Shown here piece by piece: positions 1,601 to 21,390 of a stretch of DNA of 32,000 bases. Origin of the DNA: Propionibacterium freudenreichii subsp. freudenreichii (GTDB lineage: Bacteria; Actinomycetota; Actinomycetes; Propionibacteriales; Propionibacteriaceae); contig NZ_CP010341.1 of assembly GCF_000940845.1 (NCBI RefSeq), forward strand, positions 420,001 to 452,000, given 5' to 3'. Made by a program: the position numbers and the translations under genes. The stretch's first letter is position 1. Each line of letters begins with the position of its first letter. Below the pieces are notes generated by a model. That model was not told the origin of the DNA, searched no databases, and saw only the letters and a program-made list of their open reading frames with translations.

Positions 1601-2591
1601 CAGCGTCCTCCTGAAAGGGATGCAGGGTGCCCCGGAGCAGCGTGCGTTCGGGGGCGCTGTCGTTGTCGGACTTGTCCAGTGGAAAGCTGCACGCGCCGAT
1701 CACCCCGCGTCTCACCAAGAGCTGTCTGGCGTCCACGGACCGGACGGGATCATCCGAGAAGGCTGACAACAGCTCCCGACTACGTGCCAGGGCCGTCCAC
1801 AGCACCGGCGAGATCGGATCGGCAACCACCGGGACCACCAGCAGCCGCGGATACGATCGCGCGGGCGGCACCGCACCCGCCGTGGCACTCACCCCGATGC
1901 TCTTGGGCACCAGCGTGAACGCGCTGATACCCCATAAGGAGCACCAGGCCAACGCATTGTCCGTGGGTCCCGGTGAGCTGAGCCCGGTAGGGGTTCGCGA
2001 ATCGGGTTTGTTCTTGCCCACCACATCGTTCACCGCGCGGCCCCCAAGCCCATCGAGCACCTTGCCCGCCGTCCAGGTGGACACCTCGCGGGCCAGGGGC
2101 GCCAACCGCTGTCCGATGAACTCTTCACCGCGGTTGCGGGTCTTCATCTCCCAGCGCGACGCAGCATGGTCGGGCCGCGGCTGACCGTCTTGGCGCACCC
2201 AATATCCCGGCTCGCCGAGATTGACAATCATCCGCTGATCCAGCCGCGTGAGCCCGGCGTCCAGGAAGTGTTCCCGCAGTTCCTCGAGCTCGAACCACCC
2301 TTCGTCGTCGGTGGGGGGCTTGAGTCGGGGACTGAACAACGCATGGCCGTCTTCGGGCGCCGGACGTCGGGCCTGCAGCCAGCACGCTGGGTCGGCATGG
2401 CGTCGGGCGTGTGCCAGCACGGCCTCACCAGCATCAGGGCCCTCCCACTGCAGTGTTGGGCGAGCCACTGCCCCGTCCTGCCACCACAGTCGTACCCGGT
2501 GGGCACCCGCCTCCTGGAGGATGTTCGCGAGACCGACGAGCGCGAAGTGGGTGATCGCCGTGTCCAATGTGCCGGTGATTTCGAATTTCAT
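1590..2591 (-). CDS. Short Cas8u-like protein (Csb3/Cas8u2-like putative large subunit), 333 aa
   Basis: Runs from ATG 2591 to TGA 1590, with GGAGGG 5 nt upstream and an ATGA overlap with the cas3 stop. The 425-aa track version is an upstream extension lying inside cas3. The N-terminus MKFEITGTLDTAITHFALVGLANILQEAG resembles the N-terminal motif of Cas8u/Csx17-type proteins. It sits between cas3 and cas4-cas1. The family call is from memory and context only. Confidence 0.6.
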   Translation of the reverse strand: MKFEITGTLDTAITHFALVGLANILQEAGAHRVRLWWQDGAVARPTLQWEGPDAGEAVLAHARRHADPACWLQARRPAPEDGHALFSPRLKPPTDDEGWFELEELREHFLDAGLTRLDQRMIVNLGEPGYWVRQDGQPRPDHAASRWEMKTRNRGEEFIGQRLAPLAREVSTWTAGKVLDGLGGRAVNDVVGKNKPDSRTPTGLSSPGPTDNALAWCSLWGISAFTLVPKSIGVSATAGAVPPARSYPRLLVVPVVADPISPVLWTALARSRELLSAFSDDPVRSVDARQLLVRRGVIGACSFPLDKSDNDSAPERTLLRGTLHPFQEDADVW

Positions 2592-5203: not shown

Positions 5204-6741
5204 GAAACCTCCGGTGAATCCATGGGGACGAGCAGGCCACCACCAAGGTGACGTGCCTGTCCCAGAGCGAGAAGGGCACGATCGTTGACCAGGTCGGCGA
5301 GGTCGAGCTGCGCCGAATAGGGCTGGACGACACCGATTGAGCGCGGCACCTTGTGCACATAGCGGGAGACCTCAGAATCGGGAATCAGATGGGTTCCCAG
5401 GATCTGGACGCCGCGGTCAGTCACGACCGAGACGGTCTCCCAGTAGGTGTTCGCCCTGGTGAGGGCCAGTTCCTCGCGGAACACATGGCCGACGGAAAGC
5501 AGCGCCGACTGGGGGAATCCCCAGGCGCCCAGCAGCTCGTGACGGGGTTGGCGCCGGGTCTCCGGAACCATCCCGTCCAGGGTGCGCCATTGACGACGCC
5601 ACCCGGGTTGGGGCGTGGGCCAGAACTGCGACGCGTCGATCCGCAGCGGGGTGCCGAGGGTGACGCGGCCGGCGCTTGACCACAGGCCCAATCGGGGGCT
5701 GTTGAGTGCCCGGACGATCTCACCGCGGTCCTCGGCGGCGATCGAGGCCGGCAGCAACAATGCGATAGCGCCGTGGGGAAAGTCTCCGGATTCTGCACGA
5801 TGCGACAACAGCGTCGGCGGCAGGTACTGGACGGCCACGCGATTCGCGGGCTGCGACGCGCCCCTGGCGTAATGGCCGGTGACGATGGCCGGTGCGCCGT
5901 CGCCGAGCCGGGAAATCAGCATCCGGTGCATGGCGACGCACCACGTGAGGCCGTCCTCAAGGGCGATGTGCGCCGACAACGGTAACAACATGGCAAGGGG
6001 CCACGGGGAATCAGCCGGAGGAGGGGTTGGCGACTTGTAGCGCAGCACACGCAGCCCCTCGGTCGGCACGCGGGACCCGCGTGGCATCTCGGAGAAGCTC
6101 GGAGAATCCTGGGCGGCACTCGGCATCTTCGGCGGGAAGGCCTCATGATGTGCCCGGATGAGCTCGTCGAGCCGGCCCGGGCCGGGGGTGCGGACCGCCA
6201 GTCCGATGGGGCGGAGCTGCTGGGTGGAGGCCACCAACTCGTGGGTGGGCACGAACTGATCCAGCGTGAGGATCACTGGGCTGTCATCCTCGCCGAGGCA
6301 GGAGACGTCGGCGCACAGCCGTCCCACGGTCTCCTGCACCTCGGAGGGTGCATCGGCCCAGAACCATCCGACGCAATCGTCGATGGCGGTTCCGGTGCTG
6401 ATCTGGCGGGCGCCGATTCGCATTGCGGGTGACTTCTTGGGGCCCTGTACCGTGCCGGTCTTTCGATACGCATCCGGACGCCGGTCTGGTGACACGGGAA
6501 CGTGGTTGGGGATGCGGATCATCGTCGGCGGGTGTTTCTCCAGCCAGCTCAACGCGGCGGTCGATTCCGATGACGGCTCGAGGCGACCCTTGACCGCGAT
6601 GGCCTCGGATCCCTGCCCGGCAGCATTGACCAGGGCGGAGAAGAGCCTGGCGGTGTCGGGTAGCCGGTCGGGCGACCCGTCGGCGCGGTGGCCCTGGAAC
6701 ACCCCCAGCGGAAATACCGCTCGGATAGTGAGTGGCGACAT
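5200..6741 (-). CDS. csb2: Csb2-type Cas5/Cas6-like RAMP protein (Cas5u), 513 aa
   Basis: The real start is taken as ATG 6741 (MSPLTIRAVFPLGVFQGHRADGSPDRLPDTARLFSALVNAAG), 1 nt after the csb1 stop and with GAGGA upstream. The 703-aa track ORF is a 5' extension into csb1. The N-terminal pattern with the ARLFSALV motif matches my memory of the Csb2/GSU0054 family. Confidence 0.75.
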   Translation of the reverse strand: MSPLTIRAVFPLGVFQGHRADGSPDRLPDTARLFSALVNAAGQGSEAIAVKGRLEPSSESTAALSWLEKHPPTMIRIPNHVPVSPDRRPDAYRKTGTVQGPKKSPAMRIGARQISTGTAIDDCVGWFWADAPSEVQETVGRLCADVSCLGEDDSPVILTLDQFVPTHELVASTQQLRPIGLAVRTPGPGRLDELIRAHHEAFPPKMPSAAQDSPSFSEMPRGSRVPTEGLRVLRYKSPTPPPADSPWPLAMLLPLSAHIALEDGLTWCVAMHRMLISRLGDGAPAIVTGHYARGASQPANRVAVQYLPPTLLSHRAESGDFPHGAIALLLPASIAAEDRGEIVRALNSPRLGLWSSAGRVTLGTPLRIDASQFWPTPQPGWRRQWRTLDGMVPETRRQPRHELLGAWGFPQSALLSVGHVFREELALTRANTYWETVSVVTDRGVQILGTHLIPDSEVSRYVHKVPRSIGVVQPYSAQLDLADLVNDRALLALGQARHLGGGLLVPMDSPEVS

Positions 6742-6742
6742 G

Positions 6743-7942
6743 TCAGTCCTCATCCGCATCGGCCGTGGCACCGGCAAGGATGATCGGGTTGCCGGTGACC
6801 TCGAGCACCTGCCCGTCCCAGCGGATCCCGGCCGTGGCGACGGCGCGTTCGATGGCAGTGGCCAGGATGGGCCCGGTGACCTCGGGCACCAGTGGCTCGA
6901 GTTCCGTGTGGGTGCCACGTCGGCCATCGAGCGTGACCACCGGGTCGCCGGCTTCCACCAGATCGCAATTGGCGCGCAGTTCGAGCTCCTGGTCAGACAG
7001 GGCGAGGCCATGCAGCGACAGGGCCGCCAGGAGTGCGCGGCAGGCGACATTGCCCGCATTGTCGGCGCCGAAACGCAGCTGGCGCAGGGCGCTGAACGAC
7101 AACACATGGGAGCGGATGATGCGCCTGCACGAGACGAAGCCGAGGCCATCGAGGCTCGGGGGGATCGCTCCGAGCCCGAGGACCGAAGCCGACGTCGGCT
7201 TGTTCTTGGCCTTCTTGGCGTCCTTCGTGATCTTGTCCACGGTGGTCGGCGACATCTCGTCTTCCTGCGTGGCGAGCAGGGTGAGCATGTCCTTCTCGTT
7301 GAGCTGCACACTCGGGGCGATGTCGTCCTTGCGGGCAGAGCCGCGCCGCGGAGGCTTTCGCCCGGCCTCGGTCTGGTCAGCCAGCTGGCCGATGATCTCG
7401 CCGACCAGGCATGAGCGGAAGCGGGCCTGATGCGCCTTGCGGGTCGAATCCCACGCGCCGAATGCCAAGCTCACGGGGCTCAACTCGAGCAGTGCGCGCG
7501 CGTTGGCCGGGGAGGCATTGCGGGCGGCCACATATGCCGGGTACTTGGTGGTCACCTCGCCGTCGATTGTGCCGAAGCGGATGTGGCCGTCGCTGAAGCG
7601 GTGGGGCAACTGGTAATCGGTGGCGCTCAGGGTTTCGTAGTCAACCCGGATCGACGGCATCCGGGTCAGCGATGGGTCACCTTCCTCGATGGCCAGGGAG
7701 ATGGCATCCTCCACGCGGTTGAGCTGGCTCGCCTTGCTGTCGACGACGACCACGCTGCTGGGCTCGCCGCCGATGAAGCGGGTCTCGTAGGCATAGGTCC
7801 CGTCGCGTCCCTGCACATAGCGGGCGGGGGCGATGCCTGCCTGCGGTCCGGCTGCGGGGGCGAGTTCCGTCACCGACGACAGGACGCTGGCTCCGCCGGC
7901 GTGGCAGGCCGCTTCGAGGTCGGAGTAGGTGAGATCGGTCAT
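6743..7942 (-). CDS. csb1: Csb1-type Cas7 RAMP backbone protein (Cas7u), 399 aa
   Basis: Start ATG 7942 with AAGGAG 7 nt upstream (MTDLTYSDLEAACHAGGASVLSSVTELAPAAGPQAGIAPARYV...VVVDSKASQLNRVEDAI). This matches my memory of the Csb1/GSU0053 family. The 532-aa track ORF extends over the untranslated leader and the tRNA. Confidence 0.75.
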   Translation of the reverse strand: MTDLTYSDLEAACHAGGASVLSSVTELAPAAGPQAGIAPARYVQGRDGTYAYETRFIGGEPSSVVVVDSKASQLNRVEDAISLAIEEGDPSLTRMPSIRVDYETLSATDYQLPHRFSDGHIRFGTIDGEVTTKYPAYVAARNASPANARALLELSPVSLAFGAWDSTRKAHQARFRSCLVGEIIGQLADQTEAGRKPPRRGSARKDDIAPSVQLNEKDMLTLLATQEDEMSPTTVDKITKDAKKAKNKPTSASVLGLGAIPPSLDGLGFVSCRRIIRSHVLSFSALRQLRFGADNAGNVACRALLAALSLHGLALSDQELELRANCDLVEAGDPVVTLDGRRGTHTELEPLVPEVTGPILATAIERAVATAGIRWDGQVLEVTGNPIILAGATADADED

Positions 7943-10218: not shown

Positions 10219-10506
10219 ATGACCGACCTGCCCATCACCCAGACCCACCACTGCACCTGCGCGGAGGGGGAAACCAACACTCCCGAGCTCGACGCCAGCG
10301 CCATCCCGCACGCGATTCGCCACGCCGCCATCCTCGGCGCGCTGCAGGGCCTGGGCCACAACGAATCGATGATCCTGGTGGCCCCGCACAATCCGCTGCC
10401 GCTGCTCGACCAGATCGACTCCATGTGGCCCGACGTCTTCAGCCTCGAATATGTGCAGGAAGGCCCCGACGCCTGGAAGATCCGCTTCACGCGCGTGGCC
10501 GCCTGA
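10219..10506 (+). CDS. DUF2249-family small protein, 95 aa
   Basis: GAAGGGA RBS. The sequence LDASAIPHAIRHAAILGALQGLGHNESMILVAPHNPLPLLDQI...LEYVQEGPDAWKIRFTR fits the DUF2249 pattern (H..RH..I...L..G......H.P.PL...GP..W) as I remember it. Confidence 0.7.
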   Translation: MTDLPITQTHHCTCAEGETNTPELDASAIPHAIRHAAILGALQGLGHNESMILVAPHNPLPLLDQIDSMWPDVFSLEYVQEGPDAWKIRFTRVAA

Positions 10507-10511
10507 GCACC

Positions 10512-11522
10512 GTGGACGGCCAGACCGGCCTCGTTCGTCGCGCCGCAGTCCTCGGCGTCGGTGCGACGGATGGGGCTTACCCCAGCGACCGCGGCGCCCC
10601 GCTTGATCCGCAGTGCCAACGGCTGATGGACGCCCTGCTCACCGCTCCGGGGCCGATGACGGTGGCCCAGCTGGGTGTCGACGCGGAGATGCGTCCCAAC
10701 ACGGTGCGCTTCCACCTGGCCCACCTGGGCGATGCCGGGCTGGTGAGCGGTGTTTCGGCGCGCACCACCACACGCGGACGCCCCGGCGTGCTCTATCGCG
10801 CCACCGCGAGGGCCTTCGACAGCGGCCCGCAGCATCCCCGGCTGCTCACCGAGGTGCTCATGCACCATTTCCTTGCCGACGCCGCGACGCCACCGCCATC
10901 GGTTGAGGACCCGCAGCGTCCCACCACGGTGTGGGAGCGGGCCCGCCGTGCCGGACGCGCCTGGTCGTCGCACGTCGAGACGCTGCCCGGCGGAAGTCCG
11001 GCGCACGGCGGCGCCGGACCGGAACACGTGACTGACGGCACTGCGCAGTTCGACGCCCTCCTCACCCAACTCGGTAACTGGGGACTCGCACCCAACCGCA
11101 TCCGTGACCCTGGCGTCCCGGATGGCTCAGCGGTTCCGGATGAGTCGGCGGCAGCCTCGACACACAGTCCAGTGGGATCGACAATCGGCCCCGGCCCTGT
11201 TTCGCCGGACCCTGCAGCCGCCCAGCGTGATCACCTCCCCGACCGTATACGCATTGGACTCAACCGGTGTCCCTTCGCCCACGAGGCCAGCGAGTGCCCC
11301 GACCTCGTCTGCGGCGTACATGCCGGCATCATCGACGGACTACTCGCCCAACTCGGCGGGTCATGGCGCGTCGCACGGCTCACGCCCCACGCCTCGGCCG
11401 GCCAATGCCTGCTGGACGCCGAACTCACCCACCCTGCACTCCAGGCCCCTCCGTGCCCGGCGGCCGCATACCCAGACTCCGTGCACCGGGCCGGCCGCGG
11501 CGGCACCACGCCCCGCGCGTAA
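10512..11522 (+). CDS. ArsR-like winged-helix transcriptional regulator with Cys-containing C-terminal domain
   Basis: wHTH region MTVAQLGVDAEMRPNTVRFHLAHLGDAGLVSGVSARTTTRGRPGVLYRAT. C-terminal motif RCPFAHEASECPDLVCGVHAGIIDGLL...AGQC. The start is uncertain: GTG 10512 lies 5 nt after the DUF2249 stop, and the track start 10425 overlaps that gene. Confidence 0.65.
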   Translation: MDGQTGLVRRAAVLGVGATDGAYPSDRGAPLDPQCQRLMDALLTAPGPMTVAQLGVDAEMRPNTVRFHLAHLGDAGLVSGVSARTTTRGRPGVLYRATARAFDSGPQHPRLLTEVLMHHFLADAATPPPSVEDPQRPTTVWERARRAGRAWSSHVETLPGGSPAHGGAGPEHVTDGTAQFDALLTQLGNWGLAPNRIRDPGVPDGSAVPDESAAASTHSPVGSTIGPGPVSPDPAAAQRDHLPDRIRIGLNRCPFAHEASECPDLVCGVHAGIIDGLLAQLGGSWRVARLTPHASAGQCLLDAELTHPALQAPPCPAAAYPDSVHRAGRGGTTPRA

Positions 11523-11596
11523 TCACCGGGGTGCGGCCCTTGCGTGGCGCCGCAGCGCCTACCCTGAGCATGACCCGCCTGCAAGAAAGCCACCCC

Positions 11597-12874
11597 ATGT
11601 CACAGCCCGTTGCCGTCCCGGAACAGGGCAGCGCCGACCCGCCGCTCAAACCCGCCAGCCAGACCCGACGCGTGATCGTGCTGCTCGTGCCGTGCGGAGT
11701 GGCCATGGTGATGGGTTTGGACGCCGCCCTGGTGCTGCTCGGCCTGCCGGCCCCGTTGAGTGGTGAGCGGTTCTCGTCGGCCCACGGCATCATCATGACC
11801 ATCGGCTTCTTGGAAGCTCTCGTCAGCCTGGAGAGCGCGGTGTCCCTGCGTCGCCTGTGGGCCTACTGCGCTCCGGCTGCCCTCGCCGTGGGTGCCCTCC
11901 TCGTGCTCACACCGCTTCCCCTCCAGGCCGGTCAGCTGCTCATGCTTGTCGGTTGCGCGCTGCTGATCGTCAACTATTCGGTGTTGTGGACGCGCAAGCA
12001 CGAGCCGATGGTGGCGGTGCAGGTGGGTGGGGCCCTCGCCGCGCTGGGTGCCGTGCTCCTGTGGACGGGTGGGGTGTCGATCCCCGACTTGTTCGCCTGG
12101 CTGGTCACCTTCCTGATGCTCACCATTGCCGCCGAACGCGTCGTCATCTCGCGGTTCAGTCCCTCGGTGCTGACGCCGGCCGGGGCGCGGCGCTATCAGC
12201 GCGGCATCGTGGTGATCAGTGCCCTGATCGTGTTTGCGTGTCCCCTCACCACCATCTGGTCGGGCCGGGTGCTTCCCGTGTTCGGGCTGGCGCTCATCGC
12301 CCTGACCGTGGTGGCCGCATGGGGCGATGGTGCCCGCAGCGACCTCAGGGTGCGCGCCCGCGCGACGGTTGCGGGGTCGGACGCTGCGTCGGATGCGGAC
12401 ACTGCGTCCGGTTCGGCCATCACGCCGAGCCAGCGCTTCACCGGCGTCATGGTCTTCATCAGCTACCTGTGGTTGATCGTCACCGGCCTGCTCCTGGTGC
12501 ATCCCACCTTGTCAGGGCTGCATTACGATGCCCTGCTGCACGCCGTGTTCCTTGGTTTCGTGATGACCATGGTGGTGGCCCATGTGCCCACCTACCTGCC
12601 GTTCCTGCTGGAGATCCGGTTCCGCTTCAACCCCGGATTCTGGGGCGTCGCGGTGCTGTTGAACGTCGGGCTGGTGGTTCGCATCGTCGCCGACCTGGCT
12701 GGCTCCGAGACCGGACGCACCCTCGGCGGGCTGGCCAATATCGCCGCCCTGCTGTCGCTGGTTGCCGTTGCCGTCTGGGCAGCCGTCGTCAAGGGCCCTG
12801 AGGACCCGCAGGCACCCGCCGGCGACACGCGGGCGATTTCGGACACATCCCCCACCAAGGACTCCCGGGCATGA
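11597..12874 (+). CDS. Polytopic integral membrane protein (possibly NnrS-like; function unassigned)
   Basis: About 10-12 hydrophobic segments, with conserved-looking His residues in the segments SSAHGIIMTIGF and LLHAVFLGFVMTMVVAH. Start is ATG 11597 or ATG 11570. The stop overlaps the nirK start (ATGA). The track start 11267 lies inside the regulator gene. Confidence 0.6.
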   Translation: MSQPVAVPEQGSADPPLKPASQTRRVIVLLVPCGVAMVMGLDAALVLLGLPAPLSGERFSSAHGIIMTIGFLEALVSLESAVSLRRLWAYCAPAALAVGALLVLTPLPLQAGQLLMLVGCALLIVNYSVLWTRKHEPMVAVQVGGALAALGAVLLWTGGVSIPDLFAWLVTFLMLTIAAERVVISRFSPSVLTPAGARRYQRGIVVISALIVFACPLTTIWSGRVLPVFGLALIALTVVAAWGDGARSDLRVRARATVAGSDAASDADTASGSAITPSQRFTGVMVFISYLWLIVTGLLLVHPTLSGLHYDALLHAVFLGFVMTMVVAHVPTYLPFLLEIRFRFNPGFWGVAVLLNVGLVVRIVADLAGSETGRTLGGLANIAALLSLVAVAVWAAVVKGPEDPQAPAGDTRAISDTSPTKDSRA

Positions 12875-15507
12875 ACATCGAAAGCCCCACCACACGGAGA
12901 CGCCCCCACGGCCTGGCCAGCCGCCGGGTCTGGTTCACGGCCGTCACGGTGCCGGTCTGCCTGTGGGCGCTCGTCGCGCTCGCGGCACTGATCGGCCAGC
13001 GCTGGCGCGCCGACCTGGGCTGGATCGGCCTGCATGCCGCCGCCCTGGGCGTGGCCACCAACGCCATCGTCACCTGGAGCGACTACTTCGTCGACGCCCT
13101 GATGCGTGGAGCCGCCTCGTCGAAGGCCCGCCAGATCGGCGTGCTGGCGGGGCTCAACGTCGGCACCCTGGCGCTCATCGGGGGCATCGAGGCCGCCCTG
13201 AATCCCCTTGTCACAGCGGGTGCGGCGCTCATTGTCGTGGCGATCGTCGTCCACTGCGCCAGCCTGTGGCGACGCAGCCGCGGGGCATTGACCACCCGGC
13301 TTGGCAGCACGGTCGTGGGCTACTACATCGCCTGTGCCGGCTGGTTCGTGGCGGCCGGTGTCTTCGGCTTCCTCATGACCACCGCCGGCGGGGGCCACCT
13401 CAACCGTTACCTGCTGGCCCACATCGCCTCTGCGGTGCTCGGCTGCCTCGGGCTGGCCGTCATCGGCACCCTCGTCACGCTGTGGCCCACCATCCTGCGC
13501 ACCCGCATGGTGCCCGGTGCACAGACCGATGCCCGACGGGCCCTTCCGCTGCTCAACATCGCCCTTGCGGTGGTCGTCATCGGCGGCGTGATCGGACGCG
13601 GCTGGCTCTCGGCGCTAGGCCTGCTCGGATACCTGGCGTGCCTGGGCTTCACCCTGGCCGCGATGATGCGCGCCGCCCGGGTGAAGCCACCGCGCAGCTT
13701 CGCTGCCCGCAGCGTGATCGCCGGTATGGCATGGCTGGTGGGCACGCTCGTCGTGGCCACGGTGATCGCGGCCATGGGGCCCGACACCGCCACGATCATG
13801 AACCGACTCACGGCGCTGGCCTGGCCACTGCTCGCCGGTTTCGCCGCCCAACTGATCGCCGGGTCAATGGCCTACCTGCTGCCGGTGGTGATCGGTGGCG
13901 GCCCCGCCATGGTGCGCCGGCGCAACCGGGTGATGGACCTGGCGTCCAACACCCGCCTCGTCGCGGCAAATGGCGCCGGACTAGGCCTTCTGCTCCCGCT
14001 TCCGGCTGCCGGTCGGGTGGCGATGATCGCCGTGGCGGCAGCATGCGTTGCCGCGTTCCTGGTGCTCGTGGTGGCCACCGCCGTCGTCCGTAGGCCGTTG
14101 CAGATGGCCGACGTGCCACCGGCGCGCACCCACGGCTTCGAGGCAATGCTCGGCGTCGGCGTCCTGGTGATCGCACTGGCCATCGCCACCGCGATCTCGC
14201 CAGCCACGATGGTCGGCAAGGGCACTGCGAGCGGCGCCGGTTCCTCCGGGGCGGTCGGCAACGGGCAGAGTCAGCACGTGTCGGTGGAGGCCCACGACAT
14301 GAAGTTCACGCCCAACACCATCGACGTGCCGGCCGGCACTCACCTGTTCATCGACGTGAAGAACACCGACACCGGCGGCATGGTGCACGACCTTGTGCTT
14401 GCCTCGGGAGCCACCTCGGGACGCCTGTCACCCGGCGCGTCCGGCACGCTCGACGCCGGCGTGATCAGTGCCAGCACCGACGCCTGGTGCTCCATCGCCG
14501 GCCACAAGCAAATGGGCATGACCATGAAGATCAACGCGAGCGGCGCCGCGCCAGCCGGCGGTGCAGCGGCGGTGGGTTCCCCGAGCGCGACCCACGCGAC
14601 GCCCGACCCGAACGCGCAGATGACCGCCGATCCCTGGGATGCCGCCCTGCAACCGGCCGGCCCCGAGACCGAGCACCGCATCACCCTGGACGTCACCGAG
14701 AAGGAAGTGGAGGTGGCACCGGGCGTCCGCCAGCTGCGGTGGGTCTACAACGGCCAGGCGCCCGGCCCGGTGCTGCGCGGGCACGTGGGCGACAAGTTCG
14801 CGGTCACGCTGATCAACCACGGCACGATGGGCCACAGCATCGACTTCCACGCCGGCGCGCTGGCCCCCGACGGCCCGATGCGCACCATCCAACCCGGCGA
14901 GCAGCTCACCTACATCCACACCGCCACCAAGTCGGGGGTGTGGATGTACCACTGCGCCACCGCACCCATGTCGTTGCACATCGCGAACGGCATGTTCGGC
15001 GCGGTGATCATCGACCCGCCCGGCCTCACGCAGGTGGACAAGGAATACCTCATCATCCAGTCCGACCACTGGTATGGCGCCCAGGGGGAGGGCAACGACG
15101 CCGCCCGCATCAGCGACGGCAATCCGGACGCCGTGGTGTTCAACGGGTACGCCAACCAGTACGACGCGCACCCGCTGCCCGCCACGGTCGGCAACCGGAT
15201 CCGCTTCTGGGTGCTCGACATCGGCCCCAACGAGCCGATCAGCTTCCACATGGTGGGTGGCCAGTTCGACACGGTCTGGGCCGAGGGCGCATTCCGCCTG
15301 GAGTGCGGATACCAGCCGGCCGCCGGCGTCGACCCGGCCTGCGGCACGCTGGGGCCCGGCGGCTCCCAGACGCTGTCGCTCGGCCCCGCCGAGGGCGGCT
15401 ACGTCGAGATGGTGGCGCCCGAGGCCGGCCACTACAAGTTCATCAACCACGTGATGAGCGACGCCGAGAAGGGCGCCCACGGCACGCTGGAGGTCTCCGC
15501 GGGCTGA
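12871..15507 (+). CDS. nirK: Copper-containing nitrite reductase (NirK) fused to an N-terminal polytopic membrane domain and a cupredoxin domain, 878 aa
   Basis: Residues 1 to about 450 are multiple TM helices. Nt 14275-14535 encode a type-1 Cu cupredoxin (MVHDLVL...WCSIAGHKQMGM). Nt 14671-15507 encode the NirK core: GHSIDFHAG (T1/T2 His plus catalytic Asp), WMYHCATAPMSLHIANGMFG (His-Cys...His...Met), FHMVGGQFDTVW, and FINHVM. Confidence 0.85.
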   Translation: MNIESPTTRRRPHGLASRRVWFTAVTVPVCLWALVALAALIGQRWRADLGWIGLHAAALGVATNAIVTWSDYFVDALMRGAASSKARQIGVLAGLNVGTLALIGGIEAALNPLVTAGAALIVVAIVVHCASLWRRSRGALTTRLGSTVVGYYIACAGWFVAAGVFGFLMTTAGGGHLNRYLLAHIASAVLGCLGLAVIGTLVTLWPTILRTRMVPGAQTDARRALPLLNIALAVVVIGGVIGRGWLSALGLLGYLACLGFTLAAMMRAARVKPPRSFAARSVIAGMAWLVGTLVVATVIAAMGPDTATIMNRLTALAWPLLAGFAAQLIAGSMAYLLPVVIGGGPAMVRRRNRVMDLASNTRLVAANGAGLGLLLPLPAAGRVAMIAVAAACVAAFLVLVVATAVVRRPLQMADVPPARTHGFEAMLGVGVLVIALAIATAISPATMVGKGTASGAGSSGAVGNGQSQHVSVEAHDMKFTPNTIDVPAGTHLFIDVKNTDTGGMVHDLVLASGATSGRLSPGASGTLDAGVISASTDAWCSIAGHKQMGMTMKINASGAAPAGGAAAVGSPSATHATPDPNAQMTADPWDAALQPAGPETEHRITLDVTEKEVEVAPGVRQLRWVYNGQAPGPVLRGHVGDKFAVTLINHGTMGHSIDFHAGALAPDGPMRTIQPGEQLTYIHTATKSGVWMYHCATAPMSLHIANGMFGAVIIDPPGLTQVDKEYLIIQSDHWYGAQGEGNDAARISDGNPDAVVFNGYANQYDAHPLPATVGNRIRFWVLDIGPNEPISFHMVGGQFDTVWAEGAFRLECGYQPAAGVDPACGTLGPGGSQTLSLGPAEGGYVEMVAPEAGHYKFINHVMSDAEKGAHGTLEVSAG

Positions 15508-15660
15508 CGCCCTCCCGGCCGAGACTCCAGAGCGACCCGAGTGCGGGTCTGAGGGAAAGTGACTGGCTCATGGTGTTGCCCGCACCCCGTGATGTCCGAC
15601 GATCGATGAATGCCACGCCCTGCACGGTGCAGCGCTGGCACCGACCAAAGGACATGCGCC

Positions 15661-17040
15661 ATGAAGATCACACGAGCCCTGGCCGCCACTGCCACGCTGA
15701 CCGCGCTGTTGGTGGGCACCGGCGTTGCCGGGGCCGCCGCCGACGTCACCTGGGAATCATCGCCGGGACCCCACACCTTCAGCGTGGACGTCACCCCTGT
15801 TTCCTACATGGTCGACAGCTCCGGTGACGCCGCCCTGCGCGTGGAACACATCGTCGACGAGAACGGCCGGGCCTTGCTGTGCGCCCAGTTCGACCGGCCG
15901 TCGCCCTCGGGGACGCAGCTGCAGCCGTTGGGACGCGCCACTCCGCAACTTGCCTACCTGGCCAACCAGTTGGAGCATCCTGAGCTCAATCCTGACCTGG
16001 CCGGGCTGGACGCCATGCAGCAGTACTACGTGCTGCAATTCGTGGCCCACATGTATGACAGCCCCCATTTCGCCGCCTTCACCGATGTGCAGGACGGGCA
16101 ACGGGTCGCCGATCCGCATGGCCTGATCCCACGCATCACCGCGGTGAAGGCCAGGGCCGACGCCGCCTCGAATGGCGACTTCTTCGAGGGCCACAAGATC
16201 TCGGTGTCCGAGCCCGTCCCGGCCTCCGCCCTCGACGCCGAGGGATTCTGGCTGTCCGATCCGGTGACCGTGAGCGTGCAGGCCGGAAGCGCGCAGGTCA
16301 CCGTGAAGCCCACGTGGAATGAGGCGGCCACCGCGGCGGGCACCACACTGGTCGATGCCGCCACCGGCGCCCCGCTGGAGGCCGTCACCGACGGGGCACA
16401 GGTGCGGCTCAAGACCTCGGCCGACAAGCTGGCCGGTAGGGCCGGCCGGGTGGGCGTCACCCTCGACGCCAGCTTCGACGGGGGCACCGCCAAGATCGGA
16501 TATCTCTACGGCGGTGACGAGTCGGTGCAACAGATCGTCGGCTATGACGAGATCACCTACAACGAGCACCTGTCCACCGACATCTCCACCGCCTACACCC
16601 CGGTGCTCGGCTCACTGAGCGGCACGAAGGAGGGCGCGGCAGGCGAGCGGCTGGCCGGCGTGGAGTTCACGGTGAAGGACGCCGGGGGCACCGCGCTGAC
16701 AACCGTGACCACCGCATCGGACGGCACATTCACCGTCCCCGACGTGCCCTGGGGCACCTGGTTCATCCACGAGACCAAGACCCCGCAGGGTTATCTCCCC
16801 TTGTCACAGCCTGTCGAGGTGACCATCGACGGTGCCCACCGCCGCATTGACCTGCCGACCATCACCAACGACAAGGCCCCGGTGGCCAAGGGGCTGTCCA
16901 CCATCAACACCGGGCGGCCCCCATCTGACAATGCGCTGAACCCGGCGCTCGTCATTGCGGCGGGCGTCCTGCTGGGTGGCGGTGTCGGTGGTGGCGCCTG
17001 GTGCGTCGGAAGCCGTGTGACGCAGGCCATGGGCCACTGA
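15661..17040 (+). CDS. Secreted cell-surface protein with C-terminal CnaB/SpaA-type (prealbumin-fold) domain and C-terminal membrane anchor/sorting-like signal, 459 aa
   Basis: AAAGGA RBS. Signal peptide MKITRALAATATLTALLVGTGVAGAAA. CnaB-like LAGVEFTVKDAGGTALTTVTTASDGTFTVPDVPWGTWFIHETKTPQGY. C-terminus ...LSTINTGRPPSDNALNPALVIAAGVLLGGGVGGGAWCVGSR. A sortase gene lies immediately downstream. Confidence 0.75.
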   Translation: MKITRALAATATLTALLVGTGVAGAAADVTWESSPGPHTFSVDVTPVSYMVDSSGDAALRVEHIVDENGRALLCAQFDRPSPSGTQLQPLGRATPQLAYLANQLEHPELNPDLAGLDAMQQYYVLQFVAHMYDSPHFAAFTDVQDGQRVADPHGLIPRITAVKARADAASNGDFFEGHKISVSEPVPASALDAEGFWLSDPVTVSVQAGSAQVTVKPTWNEAATAAGTTLVDAATGAPLEAVTDGAQVRLKTSADKLAGRAGRVGVTLDASFDGGTAKIGYLYGGDESVQQIVGYDEITYNEHLSTDISTAYTPVLGSLSGTKEGAAGERLAGVEFTVKDAGGTALTTVTTASDGTFTVPDVPWGTWFIHETKTPQGYLPLSQPVEVTIDGAHRRIDLPTITNDKAPVAKGLSTINTGRPPSDNALNPALVIAAGVLLGGGVGGGAWCVGSRVTQAMGH

Positions 17041-17082
17041 CGCCAGGCCATGGGCCACTGACGCCAGGCCATGGGCCACCGA
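17021..17082. repeat. Three tandem copies of a 21-bp unit (CGCCAGGCCATGGGCCACTGA) spanning the surface-protein stop codon
   Basis: Copies at 17020-17040, 17041-17061 and 17062-17082. Copies 1 and 2 end in TGA and copy 3 ends in CGA. A degenerate partial copy follows (TGCCCACTGA). Confidence 0.9.
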
Positions 17083-17181
17083 TGCCCACTGATGCACAGT
17101 GCCGCGACGGAAAGTGCCGCGACGCGAGGGCGGAGAACGGGCGCCAGGGATGCGACGCGCCAGCAAGCAGGGGGAGTAGCG

Positions 17182-17916
17182 ATGAGGATGTCGACGGGTC
17201 CGCACCTGAGGGCTGCCCGCAGGTGGCGGCGGGGCCGGTTGTGGGCGGTGCTGGTGACCGTTGCGCTCGTCGCGGCGGGCGTCGCCCTGTTCCAGCACCG
17301 CATCCTGTTCCAGCACCGCGCACCGGGAGTGGCCGCTGAGCCGGTGCCGGGCATCACGACGAATGGTTCCGTGGTGGCGACGGGGGAACCGCGCACCGAC
17401 TCGGCGCCGCTTCCCCCGGCCCCGTTCGTGGCCGCGCGCCCGACCCCGGAAGCAGCCGTGGCGCTGGAGGTCGCGGCCGACCGGTTGGTGATCCCGTCAC
17501 TGGGCGTTGATGCCCCGCTGCTGGCGGCCCCGCTCGGCGAGGACGGATCGCTGGCCGTTCCCGATGACCCGCAGCAGGTGGGCGTCTCCACGATCGCCGC
17601 ACCCGTTGCCAGCTCGGCGGGAACCACCCTGCTGGCCGGCCATGTGAACATGCAGCGGGTTCCCGGCGCCCTGTGGAAGCTGTCCCAGATATTGCCCGGC
17701 GCCCGCATCATCACCACCGACCATGGCGGCGTCCGGCAGGAATGGATCGTCGACGGGCTCACCGTGCATCCCAAGCAGGGCCTGCCGGAGGGCCTCACCA
17801 ACACCACCGGCCGGCGGCGGCTGGCCGTGGTCACCTGCGGTGGCGAGGTGCACGACGGCCAGTACGAGAAGAATGTGATCGCCTGGGCACGCAGTGCCCC
17901 CACATCGGGCACCTGA
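17182..17916 (+). CDS. Class F sortase (transpeptidase), 244 aa
   Basis: GGGGAG RBS 5 nt before ATG 17182. N-terminal TM LWAVLVTVALVAAGVALF. LVIPSLGVDAPL, catalytic His in LLAGHVN, catalytic Cys in LAVVTCGG, and a conserved Arg near the C-terminus (NVIAWAR). Confidence 0.85.
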   Translation: MRMSTGPHLRAARRWRRGRLWAVLVTVALVAAGVALFQHRILFQHRAPGVAAEPVPGITTNGSVVATGEPRTDSAPLPPAPFVAARPTPEAAVALEVAADRLVIPSLGVDAPLLAAPLGEDGSLAVPDDPQQVGVSTIAAPVASSAGTTLLAGHVNMQRVPGALWKLSQILPGARIITTDHGGVRQEWIVDGLTVHPKQGLPEGLTNTTGRRRLAVVTCGGEVHDGQYEKNVIAWARSAPTSGT

Positions 17917-17946: not shown

Positions 17947-17975
17947 TTGGGTAAAACGTCAGTGCCGGCTAATAC
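17947..17975 (+). promoter_or_regulatory. Candidate sigma-70-type promoter of dnaX (TTGGGT-17 nt-TAATAC)
   Basis: -35 TTGGGT at 17947-17952, exactly 17 nt of spacer, and -10 TAATAC at 17970-17975. The in-frame GTG at 17986 lies 10 nt downstream, which would give a near-leaderless start. Confidence 0.4.
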
Positions 17976-17985
17976 TCTTGGGGTC

Positions 17986-20900
17986 GTGGATGGCGATCTG
18001 GATCCCGAGGGCCACGAGGCACCTGAGGACGATTTCTTCGAGCAGGACGGTCCTGCCCTGTTCGACGATGCCGCCAGCACCGAATCCACCAGCGCGGACA
18101 GCACGAAGGGAACCATGGCGAACAGCACCGATACCGGCGGCGTGGACGCACCACGCGACGAGCCCCTGGCGTCCGGTGAGATCCCGACGCCGGATGCCCC
18201 GGTGGCTGCTACGCCCGACGCGCCTGCGCCCGACAACGACCCGGGGGCGCCGCTGGCGCTCTACCGGCGCTATCGTCCCGACACCTTCGAGCAGGTGATC
18301 GGTCAGGACCATGTGACCCTGCCGTTGCAGCGTGCGATCGCCAACAACCGGGTGAGCCATGCCTACCTGTTCAGCGGCCCGCGCGGCTGCGGCAAGACCA
18401 CCTGTGCCCGCATCCTTGCGCGCTGCCTCAACTGCGAGAACGGCCCCACGCCCACTCCCTGCGGCCATTGCACGAGCTGCCGTGAACTGGCCACCGGAGG
18501 GCCCGGCAGCATCGACGTGATCGAGATCGACGCCGCCTCCCATGGCCGCGTCGACGACGCCCGCGAGCTGCGCGAGGGCATCTTCTTCGCACCGGTGCAA
18601 TCGCGCTTCAAGATCTACATCATCGACGAGGCCCACATGGTCACCAAGGAGGGCTTCAACGCGCTGCTGAAGGTGGTGGAGGAGCCGCCGCCGCACGTGA
18701 AGTTCATCTTCGCCACCACCGAGCCCGACAAGGTGATCGGCACCATCCGCTCGCGCACCCACCACTATCCCTTCCGGCTGGTGCCCCCGAAGGTGCTCAC
18801 CGACTACCTCGAGAAGATCTGCGTCGAGGAACACGTGCAGGTTGAGCCCGGCGTCCTGCCACTCGTGGTGCGTGCCGGCGCCGGATCGGTGCGTGACTCG
18901 CTGTCGGTGCTCGACCAGCTGCTCGGCTCGGCCGGTGCCGACGGCGTCAGTTACCAGCAGGCCACCTCGTTGCTCGGCTACACCCCCGATGCCCTGCTCG
19001 ACGAGATGGTCGACGCGCTGGCCGCCGGTGACGGCAAGGGCGTCTTCGGCACCATCGACAAGGTGATCGAGATCGGCCAGGACCCGCGACGGTTCGCCGA
19101 GGACCTGTTGCAGCGGCTGCGCGATCTGGTGATCGTGGCCGACGTGCCCGACGCCCTGAGCTCCGGCCTGATCGACGTGGCCGCCGACCAGGCGCAGCGC
19201 TTCGAACACCAGGCGGCACTGATCGGGCCCGGGGAACTCACGCGGGCCGCCGAGGTGATCGCCAGCGGCCTCACCCACATGCGGGGCACCACCGCGCCCC
19301 GACTGCACCTCGAACTGATGTGCGCACGCATCCTGCTTCCCGGCGCCGACGTGGACGGACGCGGCACCCACGCGCGCCTCGACCGGCTGGAACGTCGCGT
19401 CGGAATGCCCGGCGTGGCCGAGGAGCCCGCCGTCGAGCAGCCCGCGCCACCCCAGTGGGACGACCAGGCCAATGTCAGTCGAGACCCCCATGCCGACGCC
19501 CAACCCGGCGTCGACGACCAGCAGGGTGCCCGCACCCGACAGCGCTCCGTGCGCGACGGTGGTTCAGGGCTCAGCGGTGTGGGCCTGGCAGGTCCCGGCT
19601 ATGCCGACCGAGCGAACCAGACCCAGATGGGCAATGCTCCCGGTACCGCCGCCGGCATGGGTGTCGGTGCGCCCACCGGTGGTGGTCATGCCGCCACGGC
19701 CCGTCAACGCCCCGCCGTCGATCAGACGGTCGCCCCGGCATCCGGTGCGCCCCGCCAACAGCGGCCGGCTGCCGGCCCCGCGCCTGACGGGCAGGCGACG
19801 CCGCCCGGCAACGCTTCTCGCGGCCATGCTGGGCCCACCGATACTGGGCCCACCAGCGCCGGGCCCGGTATCGCCGCGTCTGATCAGGCTGCGTCCGATC
19901 ACCCTGCGCCGACCGACAACCTCGGGGACAGCCCGAACGCCGGCACATCGCACGCCACCGCCGCTGATGGCGCAGCGACCGGGGTCAATACGAACGCCGA
20001 CAACGCCCCGGGCGCCGACAACGCCGGGCCGGCCGGGCCCGCCCCGCAGGCCACGGGTGCGCAAGCCCCGTCGTCGGGGGATTCGTTCCCGGCGCAGGCT
20101 CCTTCCTCCGCTGCCGGCCGCCTGAACACCGCCGAGGTGCGCAGGCTGTGGCCGGAGGTGCTCACTGCGGTGAAGGGCCGCCGTCGCTTCACCTGGATTC
20201 TGCTCAGCCAGAATGCGCAGGTGCTGCAGGCCGACGTCGACGGCCTGTCGCTGGCCTTCAACTCGGCCGGCGCCCGGGACAGCTTCCAGAACGGTGGCTC
20301 CAACGACGTGCTGCGGGAAGCCCTGATCGACGTGCTCGGCGCCGACCTGCCGATCCACTGCGTGGTGGAGGGTACGGCCGCCATGAACGAGGCGCGTGGG
20401 GGAGAACCTGCCAGGCAGCGCCCAGCGCCGACCCAACAACAGGCGCCAACCCAACACCCGACATCGACCCAACACCAGGCACCCGCCCAGCAGCAGGCGC
20501 CGACCCAGCACGAGGCACCAGCCGGGCATTCGGCGCCCCAGGACCAGGCCGCGCCCCAGCGGCAACCCGGGGCTGGGCAACGTCCGGCCCCCGGTCAGGC
20601 GGAGCCTGATCAGTCGGGAACCGGCCCATCGGAACCGGCCCAACCGGCGTCCGACAAGCGGGAAGGCGGCCACCAAGGCCCCCCAGCTGAGGGCGGCGAG
20701 CGTGCGGGGGGCTCGTCGCAGCAACACCAGTCGCAGCAACACCGGGATGACGCGGATCAGCACCTGGCCGATCCGCCGGAGGTCCCGCGCCAACGTGCCG
20801 CGCAAGCCGGATCCCCCGGGGATGACGGGAGCCATGGAGCGACGGGAGTTCCCGATGACGCTGCACCGGCCCGCCGCAATGGCCGTCGTCGCCATGTGAT

Positions 20901-21390
20901 CCCCGATCTCGGCGAGGTCGCGTCGTCGATGCCCACCGAGCAGCGCGATCCGGGGTGGGACCCGTGGGCCACGCCGCAGGGCGACGCAGGCCAGCCCGAT
21001 CCACACGGGACTGGCTCATTTGGGACTGGCCCATCTGGGACCGGTTCACCCAATGCCGGCCCGAACGGTGCCGGTTCAGCAGGTGCTGGTCCCAACGGGT
21101 CCGGCACACGCTCCTCAACCACCGATGGAACATCCACCGACGGGCCGCAGGCGGCGGGTCACGCGGGCCCCCGGAACAACGCCGCGGCACCCGGTGCTTC
21201 CGGCCGCGCCCCGGAGCCCCACCATGAGATCCGCTGGGAGGTGCCCCTGCCCGACGACGAGCCGCCCTACGATCCCGATGCCGATGTGAGCATGAGCGAT
21301 CCCAACGTCGACGAGACCGGGAAGTCGGCCGCGGAGCTGATCATCTCCGAGCTCGACGCCGAGGTGATCGAGGAGATCGAGCACGGCTGA
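17986..21390 (+). CDS. dnaX: DNA polymerase III subunits gamma/tau
   Basis: LYRRYRPDTFEQVIGQDHV, GPRGCGKTT (Walker A), zinc module CENGPTPTPCGHCTSC, IYIIDEAHM, SRTHHYPF. Conserved C-terminal tail SAAELIISELDAEVIEEIE. The start is uncertain: GTG 17986, ATG 18115 (GAAGGGA upstream), or the track's TTG 17947, which overlaps the putative promoter. Confidence 0.85.
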   Translation: MDGDLDPEGHEAPEDDFFEQDGPALFDDAASTESTSADSTKGTMANSTDTGGVDAPRDEPLASGEIPTPDAPVAATPDAPAPDNDPGAPLALYRRYRPDTFEQVIGQDHVTLPLQRAIANNRVSHAYLFSGPRGCGKTTCARILARCLNCENGPTPTPCGHCTSCRELATGGPGSIDVIEIDAASHGRVDDARELREGIFFAPVQSRFKIYIIDEAHMVTKEGFNALLKVVEEPPPHVKFIFATTEPDKVIGTIRSRTHHYPFRLVPPKVLTDYLEKICVEEHVQVEPGVLPLVVRAGAGSVRDSLSVLDQLLGSAGADGVSYQQATSLLGYTPDALLDEMVDALAAGDGKGVFGTIDKVIEIGQDPRRFAEDLLQRLRDLVIVADVPDALSSGLIDVAADQAQRFEHQAALIGPGELTRAAEVIASGLTHMRGTTAPRLHLELMCARILLPGADVDGRGTHARLDRLERRVGMPGVAEEPAVEQPAPPQWDDQANVSRDPHADAQPGVDDQQGARTRQRSVRDGGSGLSGVGLAGPGYADRANQTQMGNAPGTAAGMGVGAPTGGGHAATARQRPAVDQTVAPASGAPRQQRPAAGPAPDGQATPPGNASRGHAGPTDTGPTSAGPGIAASDQAASDHPAPTDNLGDSPNAGTSHATAADGAATGVNTNADNAPGADNAGPAGPAPQATGAQAPSSGDSFPAQAPSSAAGRLNTAEVRRLWPEVLTAVKGRRRFTWILLSQNAQVLQADVDGLSLAFNSAGARDSFQNGGSNDVLREALIDVLGADLPIHCVVEGTAAMNEARGGEPARQRPAPTQQQAPTQHPTSTQHQAPAQQQAPTQHEAPAGHSAPQDQAAPQRQPGAGQRPAPGQAEPDQSGTGPSEPAQPASDKREGGHQGPPAEGGERAGGSSQQHQSQQHRDDADQHLADPPEVPRQRAAQAGSPGDDGSHGATGVPDDAAPARRNGRRRHVIPDLGEVASSMPTEQRDPGWDPWATPQGDAGQPDPHGTGSFGTGPSGTGSPNAGPNGAGSAGAGPNGSGTRSSTTDGTSTDGPQAAGHAGPRNNAAAPGASGRAPEPHHEIRWEVPLPDDEPPYDPDADVSMSDPNVDETGKSAAELIISELDAEVIEEIEHG

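Follow-up and report, generated by a model that had tools for sequence, protein, structure and literature searches.

The stretch of DNA analyzed here (the window; 32,000 nucleotides, positions 420,001 to 452,000 of contig NZ_CP010341.1, assembly GCF_000940845.1) comes from Propionibacterium freudenreichii subsp. freudenreichii and contains nirK, the product of which combines a 13-helix membrane domain, a type-1-copper (T1Cu) cupredoxin and a complete NirK core in one chain. Judged from its sequence, this protein is very probably a dissimilatory, nitric oxide (NO)-forming copper nitrite reductase of the membrane-integral class typical of Actinomycetota, with reduction of nitrite to NO predicted at the type-2 copper (T2Cu). 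Structural modeling indicates with similarly high confidence that the first 12 helices of the membrane domain adopt the three-fold pseudo-symmetric fold of subunit I of the haem-copper oxidases (HCO) and NO reductases (NOR). As a tentative proposal, to which we assign somewhat less than an even chance, this domain would hold one haem and pass electrons to NirK through the cupredoxin.

nirK encodes a predicted membrane-integral copper nitrite reductase

The following features of nirK were identified:

12871-15507, forward strand: full nirK open reading frame (ORF), 878 amino acids, frame uninterrupted
12922-14085, forward strand: HCO-subunit-I-like domain of 12 transmembrane (TM) helices, residues 18-405, from AlphaFold2 and Foldseek, with an internal repeat
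13033-13035, forward strand: codon of H55 (GLHAAALG; in TM2, roughly 6 residues in from its outer end), a histidine in all 189 sequences compared
13420-13422, forward strand: codon of H184 (LLAHIASAVLG; in TM6, roughly 7 residues in from its outer end), a histidine in all 189 sequences compared
14134-14196, forward strand: 13th TM helix, residues 422-442, from the AlphaFold model, which takes the chain outside
14281-14526, forward strand: T1Cu cupredoxin domain, approximately residues 471-552, matching Pfam Cupredoxin_1 and Copper-bind and aligned to the N-terminal cupredoxin of 2dv6
14668-15507, forward strand: two-domain NirK catalytic core, approximately residues 600-878, matching TIGR02376 (1.6e-41) and more than 100 NirK structures in the PDB

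The original prediction of a NirK with three modules (membrane domain, cupredoxin and core) was borne out, with a single 878-amino-acid ORF on which the matches in Pfam, NCBIfam and to 2dv6 agreed. The protein is identical to WP_052809073.1, which is present in many independent P. freudenreichii genomes and is named in RefSeq only as a "multicopper oxidase domain-containing protein". NCBIfam Cu_nitrite_red (TIGR02376) matched residues 600-875 with 142.7 bits and did not reach its equivalog cut-off (296.3 bits); this profile was built on short proteobacterial NirKs, which explains the RefSeq name. Pfam matches were obtained for Cupredoxin_1 (residues 464-528) and Cu-oxidase_3 (residues 608-717), and also for Cu-oxidase_2.

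All copper and catalytic ligands were present, and the motifs quoted in the prediction (MVHDL, HSIDFH, YHC..H..M, FHMVGG and INH) were found where it had placed them. In the cupredoxin, the T1Cu ligands H506, C540, H545 and M550 lie in MVHDL (504-508) and WCSIAGHKQMGM (539-550), the last three with the spacing C540-x4-H545-x4-M550 (CX4HX4M), and these ligands were kept in 41 of 41 fused homologues. The core motifs GHSIDFH (654-660), YHC..H..M (693-708), SFHMVGG (791-797) and FINHV (857-861) contain the T1Cu ligands H655, C695, H703 and M708, the T2Cu ligands H660, H694 and H860, and the catalytic residues D658 and H793. Each of the 13 copper and catalytic positions was kept in 36-41 of the 41 fused homologues. 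The whole core aligned to more than 100 solved NirKs, and the closest solved relative was Hyphomicrobium HdNIR (2dv6), to which residues 476-875 aligned with cupredoxin and core matching together (E 1.4e-42). HdNIR shares the extra N-terminal cupredoxin and the core, including all T1Cu and T2Cu ligands, but is a soluble, periplasmic enzyme that lacks the membrane domain. An active NirK would fit the conversion of nitrite into nitrous oxide (N2O) by propionibacteria, including P. freudenreichii, for which Kaspar 1982 is cited in PMC3534718.

The membrane-fused architecture is already known, and the window gene is a catalogued orthologue. The P. acnes NirK was described as a protein of approximately 900 amino acids with a 400-amino-acid TM domain "of unknown function" and a CX4HX4M cupredoxin (PMC4770552), a description that the window protein matches with its 878 amino acids, 13 TM helices within residues 18-442, CX4HX4M cupredoxin and NirK core. 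The NirK of Corynebacterium pseudotuberculosis has 882 amino acids and approximately 13 TM helices according to a 2017 paper (PMC5338063), and Helen et al. gave a length of 700-990 amino acids for actinobacterial NirKs. The long NirKs of Cutibacterium acnes (approximately 900 amino acids) and C. pseudotuberculosis (882 amino acids) come from the same phylum as the window protein and have the same three-module order, with no architectural difference. We examined the domain arrangement at 80 species-representative actinomycete loci and found the complete fusion in one frame at 60 of them, with full fusions seen in Pseudonocardia, Nocardioides, Streptomyces, Cellulomonas, Mycobacterium, Rhodococcus, Arthrobacter, Microbacterium and other genera. 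The original prediction took the known extended NirKs to be soluble or periplasmic; this was incorrect, as membrane-extended forms are on record (PMC4770552, PMC5338063) and are widespread in Actinomycetota. The literature searched yielded no functional or structural study of the NirK membrane domain, only the statement of "unknown function". What the present analysis adds, and what we did not find in that literature, is the oxidase fold, the two invariant histidines, the existence of stand-alone and split forms, and the conserved partner gene.

The membrane domain is predicted to have an oxidase fold

An AlphaFold2 model of NirK residues 1-450, built on a 61-sequence alignment, had a predicted local distance difference test (pLDDT) score of 91.2 and a predicted template-modeling (pTM) score of 0.89. 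The model contained 12 TM helices in residues 18-405 and a 13th at residues 422-442, followed by a Gly/Ser/Ala linker (residues 443-470). Lysine and arginine residues numbered 15 in the inside loops versus 4 in the outside loops, and this positive-inside count places the N-terminus inside, the C-terminus outside and hence the copper domains outside the cell. The multi-helix domain of the original prediction thus resolved, from the AlphaFold2 model and the positive-inside rule, into 13 helices with an N-in/C-out topology.

Comparison of the model with the PDB using Foldseek revealed subunit I of an HCO or NOR in every one of the top 35 matches (TM-score 0.42-0.61). Examples were CcoN of the cbb3 oxidase (3mk7; E 4.5e-4, TM-score 0.54), NorB of cNOR (3o0r; 5e-4), the ba3 oxidase, plant COX1 (TM-score 0.61) and 7jro (TMq 0.61). 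When the family profile was aligned to itself with hhalign, an internal repeat shifted by four helices was detected (probability 91.5%, E 9e-7), and a four-helix repeat corresponds to the three-unit pseudo-symmetry of the HCO superfamily. The predicted domain shares with the HCO/NOR catalytic subunits (CcoN, 3mk7; NorB, 3o0r; ba3 subunit I, 1ehk) a 12-TM fold made of three four-helix repeats, histidines near the outer face in TM2 and TM6, and a cupredoxin-bearing element that follows, as in subunit II. The module order of 12 TM helices, one TM helix and a cupredoxin mirrors HCO subunit I plus subunit II.

The link to the haem-copper family, which had been suggested for testing, was upheld at the level of the fold but not at the level of sequence. 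The window membrane domain did not match Pfam COX1 (PF00115) even at E ≤ 10, a threshold at which Pfam and NCBIfam as a whole returned nothing usable for this domain; COX1 was matched below threshold by three homologues (19.5-25 bits versus a cut-off of 34.8). A search of all PDB sequences with the membrane-family profile returned no HCO match, and hhalign against Agrobacterium NorB gave a probability of 0.6%. The six canonical HCO histidines are expected in TM2, TM6, TM7 (two) and TM10 (two), and two of the six are kept, H55 in TM2 and H184 in TM6. The TM7 His-His pair and the TM10 His-x-His motif are absent, with TM10 carrying Q327 and no conserved histidine, and their loss excludes a canonical two-haem/CuB centre. 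Because the weak sequence matches were offset by one repeat, the helices cannot be paired one by one with those of the oxidases. A further difference from the HCO/NOR subunits is that the cupredoxin is of the T1Cu and not the CuA type. Its candidacy as a CuA/subunit-II homologue was rejected, as the matches to auracyanin, Cox2 and HdNIR were marginal and non-discriminating and the ligand pattern is that of T1Cu. The membrane domain was also compared with NnrS; it gave no match to Pfam NnrS (PF05940), hhalign probabilities of 0.2-0.3% against eight NnrS sequences, and no significant alignment with Agrobacterium NnrS.

Two histidines are invariant across the membrane domain family

When 1.84 billion cluster representatives were searched with a profile, 1778 relatives of the membrane domain were identified, 492 of them at E ≤ 1e-30 and many of them 400-460 amino acids long. 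Conservation was analyzed in 189 near-full-length members, typically 30-40% identical to the window domain. In this set, 90 sequences stop right after the domain, 73 have a long C-terminal part and 26 are intermediate. The invariant residues were H55, H184, G191 and R362; W51, F73, Y152, T200, P206, W288, Q327, L336 and P338 were conserved in at least 95% of the sequences and H128 in 89%. Thus, the histidines of GLHAAALG and LLAHIASAVLG, described as conserved-looking from the window sequence, are present in every member analyzed. At 6-7 residues beneath the outer ends of their helices, H55 and H184 lie at the depth of metal binding in oxidases. A membrane region serving as a pure anchor had been expected to show no conserved polar or histidine positions across homologues, and by this standard the invariant positions exclude a pure anchor. 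Its membership of a conserved family, the invariant polar residues and the existence of stand-alone and split forms all support the suggestion that the domain is more than an anchor. The domain represents a family of its own that often stands alone and is tightly coupled in evolution to a T1Cu cupredoxin, which is fused to it with or without NirK or encoded next to it in split form. Between the window protein and its P. australiense orthologue, the membrane domain is 59% identical.

Several individual arrangements were recorded. Four loci read as the TM domain with a cupredoxin only; in one of these (L055) the contig ends approximately 560 bases further on, and the locus may simply be truncated. 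In Prescottella subtropica, which is outside the 80 genomes (P0004; L003, 6001-7677), the domain is fused to a cupredoxin only, without NirK, and is flanked by a DUF2249 gene, a helix-turn-helix (HTH) regulator gene and, as the next gene, a hemerythrin gene. A split form (L007, 646-1995 and 1992-3494; also L008) consists of a 449-amino-acid domain gene that overlaps a 500-amino-acid cupredoxin-NirK gene by 4 bp. The two examples of this split form are independent assemblies from one lineage, and the gene pair adjoins molybdenum cofactor (Moco) biosynthesis genes.

A second oxidase-fold protein is encoded upstream of nirK

nirK is the last gene of a cluster with the order DUF2249, ArsR-type regulator, oxidase-fold 12-TM protein and nirK. 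The three genes that precede it are:

10219-10506, forward strand: small DrpA-like protein with DUF2249 (Pfam PF10006, E 6e-22), encoded by the first gene in the cluster
10425-11522, forward strand: ArsR/SmtB-type HTH regulator, weak matches to Pfam HTH_20/HTH_5 and NCBIfam HTH_metalloreg
11597-12874, forward strand: second oxidase-fold 12-TM protein, 425 amino acids, alternative ATG at 11570

The gene directly upstream of nirK was correctly predicted to encode a polytopic protein of similar size to the membrane domain (425 amino acids, 12 helices). Its stop codon overlaps the nirK start codon (ATGA), in the manner of translational coupling. No match to this protein was found in Pfam or NCBIfam, and relaxing the threshold to E ≤ 10 gave nothing usable. 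Its AlphaFold2 model (pLDDT 86.9) contained 12 helices, and the top 34 Foldseek matches in the PDB were all HCO or NOR subunit I (ba3, TMq 0.60, root-mean-square deviation approximately 7 Å). Invariant residues of the upstream family include H63, E79, E180, D311, H315 and H329; in the model, H63 (TM2) and H315 (TM10) appear to be placed like the low-spin haem ligands of oxidases. A BLASTP comparison of the NirK membrane domain with the upstream protein found nothing. Using hhalign, the two aligned collinearly with a probability of 43-67% (E 2.4e-4 to 5e-5), so the homology between them that the original prediction had raised is weak but detectable. The upstream gene lies directly 5' of nirK in 48 of 58 fused loci, compared with 0 of 10 domain-only loci.

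The upstream protein contains NnrS-like local motifs (H-x3-M-x2-G-F in TM2 and H-A-x3-G in TM10), its H315 was aligned to NnrS H317 by hhalign, and some UniRef entries label its family 'NnrS family'. The window protein itself gave no match to Pfam NnrS, and 4 of 43 homologues matched with a best E-value of 0.044, compared with 3e-116 for a true NnrS control. As a fair test, an alignment of eight true NnrS sequences was built; the comparison was still not significant, with hhalign probabilities of 1.5-3.4%. Homology to NnrS, the other relationship suggested for testing, was therefore not detectable by Pfam or hhalign for either the membrane domain or the upstream protein (probability 0.2-3.4%). 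The likeness to NnrS consists in 12 TM helices, few conserved histidines and a location beside nirK and DUF2249 under denitrification control; the difference is that neither of the two proteins falls within Pfam NnrS and that neither profile comparison to the eight NnrS sequences was significant. NnrS itself presumably has an oxidase-like fold. The window domain fits the definition of the 12-TM 'HCO homology' proteins, namely 12 TM helices, three repeats, two conserved histidines and a denitrification or NO context.

A DUF2249 gene was present no more than 3 kb upstream in 52 of 56 fused loci and in 9 of 10 domain-only loci. The DUF2249 proteins DrpA and DrpB regulate or sense nitrate respiration in Thermus (PMC6282519), and DUF2249 proteins are induced in Haloferax denitrification (PMC11218638). 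The listed ORF of the HTH regulator starts within the DUF2249 gene, and translation probably begins after position 10506; an HTH gene of 226-228 amino acids occupies the equivalent position in P. australiense and Nocardioides malaquae. Other actinomycete clusters adjoin narGH, genes for NarK-type major facilitator superfamily (MFS) transporters and Moco genes, and hemerythrin genes occur near the membrane domain in seven loci. No cytochrome c or azurin donor gene was identified in the window cluster, and a promoter and terminator scan of the cluster gave nothing informative.

The gene order was also recorded in two other organisms. A plasmid of Agrobacterium tumefaciens (L004, 12292-14525) carries norCBQD, two DUF2249 genes, nnrS and nirK. 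This order indicates that a neighborhood of DUF2249, a 12-TM protein and nirK is common to Proteobacteria and Actinomycetota, the 12-TM proteins themselves having no detectable sequence similarity; the NnrS position is occupied by an oxidase-fold protein in the window and in the 48 fused loci mentioned above. In Streptomyces chartreusis (L010, 5769-7004 and 9748-10194), a TIGR04053 radical S-adenosylmethionine (radical-SAM)/SPASM gene related to haem b synthase AhbD and NirJ takes the place of the upstream oxidase-fold gene. A gene for a weakly CopD-like membrane protein follows nirK in this species, and the cluster lies beside narGH, hemerythrin, GAF histidine kinase and universal stress protein (Usp) genes. 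The TIGR04053 radical-SAM gene and the CopD-like gene were rejected as general nirK partners, being present in only 2 and 1 of 91 loci, respectively.

A putative role of the membrane domain in electron entry

The reading that we put forward, while rating it somewhat below an even chance, is that the membrane domain holds one haem and supplies NirK with electrons via the cupredoxin. The NirK chain very probably starts in the cytoplasm and crosses the membrane 13 times, TM13 carrying it outside. H55 in TM2 and H184 in TM6 would together bind one cofactor, for which a single b-type haem is the most plausible candidate, at a site that may be a pseudo-symmetry relative of the oxidase low-spin haem site, with the TM2/TM6 pair corresponding to the TM2/TM10 pair. 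Electrons would enter from menaquinol, either directly or via the co-encoded oxidase-fold partner, and reach the cofactor of the membrane domain. From there they would pass to the T1Cu of the tethered cupredoxin, the T1Cu of the core, the T2Cu and finally nitrite. Actinomycetes are not known to have soluble periplasmic electron carriers, and a monoderm actinomycete devoid of such free carriers would in this way be able to connect its quinol pool to nitrite by a self-contained route.

A T1Cu cupredoxin is an electron carrier, and its tethering to the domain even where NirK is missing argues for electron exchange between the two. Most 12-TM families of HCO homology reportedly retain two histidines and might accommodate one haem. 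The cytochrome-c-fused NirK of Ralstonia pickettii (PDB 3ziy) and qNOR follow the same principle, with electron entry and catalysis joined in a single chain; the donor module is a soluble cytochrome c in the former and the quinol-binding extension of a two-haem NOR in the latter, whereas the candidate module of the window protein would be a membrane domain with a putative cofactor. The more far-reaching claim of the original prediction was that of a quinol-linked nitrite reductase in a single polypeptide. That this polypeptide, possibly together with the oxidase-fold partner, constitutes a complete menaquinol:nitrite oxidoreductase, binding one haem via H55 and H184, oxidizing menaquinol and sending the electron on via the cupredoxin, seems to us unlikely. 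No recognized quinol motif was found in the membrane domain, and H55 and H184 alone point to cofactor binding.

A number of observations weigh against electron entry through the membrane domain. A sequence-level match to the HCOs was absent from the COX1 profile comparison, the PDB profile search and the NorB alignment. Canonical oxidases do not bind a common metal through their TM2 and TM6 histidines. In 11 of the 80 genomes the domain occurs on its own, with at least 1.5 kb downstream lacking a cupredoxin or NirK in any frame, which points to a function that does not need NirK. The clade of P. freudenreichii kept the invariant core and replaced other residues typical of the family: in Propionibacteriaceae, R50 is G or D, H72 is Y, R91 is V or I, and N188 is A, G or S, and in P. 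freudenreichii alone W192 is C (codon 13444-13446). The DUF2249, hemerythrin and NnrS-like partners fit the handling of NO or O2 as well as they fit electron supply. Finally, the N-terminal cupredoxin of HdNIR was reported to be dispensable and too far from the core for efficient transfer (PMC4770552).

Nearly as likely as electron entry, and doubtful in its own right, is a role in NO handling, in which the oxidase-fold domain and the upstream protein are functional analogues of NnrS that bind, buffer or sense the NO made by NirK, so as to protect the cell or hand the NO over to a reductase, and NirK receives its electrons from elsewhere. The Agrobacterium order (norCBQD, two DUF2249 genes, NnrS, nirK) and the actinobacterial order (DUF2249, HTH, oxidase-fold protein, nirK) follow the same logic. 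DUF2249 accompanies 9 of 10 domain-only loci, hemerythrin is nearby in seven loci, and stand-alone forms occur in nitrate-respiration or Moco neighborhoods without NirK. The NnrS-like motifs of the upstream protein, the alignment of its H315 with NnrS H317 and the 'NnrS family' names in UniRef point in the same direction, and the HCO superfamily is built for NO and O2 binding. However, neither protein matches Pfam NnrS, which true NnrS matches at 3e-116, and the hhalign probabilities stay at 0.2-3.4%. The binuclear centre is absent, and the tethered cupredoxin of the forms that lack NirK is left unexplained by NO handling.

We regard it as improbable that the membrane domain is a cofactor-less scaffold, that is, the degenerate remnant of an oxidase whose only task is to anchor trimeric NirK in the right orientation, which might dock NirK to the respiratory bcc-aa3 or Nar complexes, and which conserves its residues for folding and packing. 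Across 189 sequences at ≤40% identity, two histidines and one arginine within the membrane do not vary, stand-alone family members have nothing to anchor, and a single helix such as TM13 is enough for an anchor. A scaffold would nevertheless be consistent with the loss of four of the six canonical HCO histidines, with the many conserved Gly, Pro, Trp and Phe positions of the helix-packing type, and with the absence of Pfam, NCBIfam and PDB sequence matches.

A novel NOR, in which the fused domain, the upstream protein or both would convert NO to N2O at a non-canonical site and the locus would form a nitrite-to-N2O unit, is very improbable. The predicted fold is that of NorB and qNOR, propionibacteria convert nitrite to N2O, and HCO families that reduce NO with altered active-site ligands are known (PMC11214002); yet all known NORs keep the haem ligands and the metal-B site, TM7 and TM10 carry none of these here, and canonical NOR genes are annotated in related propionibacteria. 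Hardly credible is copper delivery, with the membrane domain moving or chaperoning copper across the membrane to the exported copper sites: each chain needs three copper ions outside a monoderm cell and a weakly CopD-like gene follows nirK in S. chartreusis, but the conserved Met and Cys motifs of Cu(I) pathways are absent, the CopD-like neighbor was seen in 1 of 91 loci only, and stand-alone forms have no cuproprotein partner. The concern that the ORF is really two genes joined by a sequencing frameshift, to which the natural split version in some lineages might lend weight, can be set aside as next to impossible, as the frame is continuous, many independent P. freudenreichii genomes encode exactly this protein and the fusion occurs in 60 of 80 loci.

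If the membrane domain does bind a haem and pass electrons from menaquinol to NirK, it would provide the long-missing electron-donor route of NirK in Actinomycetota, and a biochemical function would be assigned for the first time within the two-histidine oxidase-homology families. The enzymology of NirK rests almost wholly on soluble proteobacterial enzymes with soluble donors, and most of the 80 Actinomycetota loci, from soil genera and mycobacteria to skin and dairy propionibacteria, encode a membrane-integral NirK. With a predicted oxidase fold, two invariant histidines, and oxidase-fold and DUF2249 partners, "unknown function" becomes a short list of testable hypotheses on haem content, quinol-driven activity and NO binding, for which the food-grade cheese bacterium P. 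freudenreichii would be a convenient test organism. The findings also bear on the roles of NnrS-like proteins, on how actinomycetes release NO and N2O, and on the nitrite tolerance of dairy and skin bacteria.

Other features of the window

Between nirK and dnaX, the window contains a gene for a SpaA-fold (pilin/adhesin-type) surface protein (15610-17040) and a sortase gene (17071-17916). In P. australiense, dnaX comes almost directly after nirK, so the pilin-sortase pair looks like a lineage-specific insertion. A 21-bp tandem repeat (17018-17086; 3.3 copies, 93% matches, consensus TGACGCCAGGCCATGGGCCAC) runs from the last part of the pilin-like gene into the first part of the sortase ORF and could be a length-variable junction. 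The dnaX-like ORF (17947-21390) encodes 1147 amino acids, its C-terminal half being very long, of low complexity and rich in Pro, Ala, Gln and Gly; the gene at the dnaX position in P. australiense encodes 802 amino acids. Upstream of ilvA, an 871-amino-acid protein with a Cas3-like C-terminal domain (PF22590, 4e-14) is encoded on the reverse strand (2588-5203) and adjoins a 703-amino-acid ORF without a Pfam match on the same strand (5200-7311); this Cas3-like gene pair may be a CRISPR-associated or defence locus.

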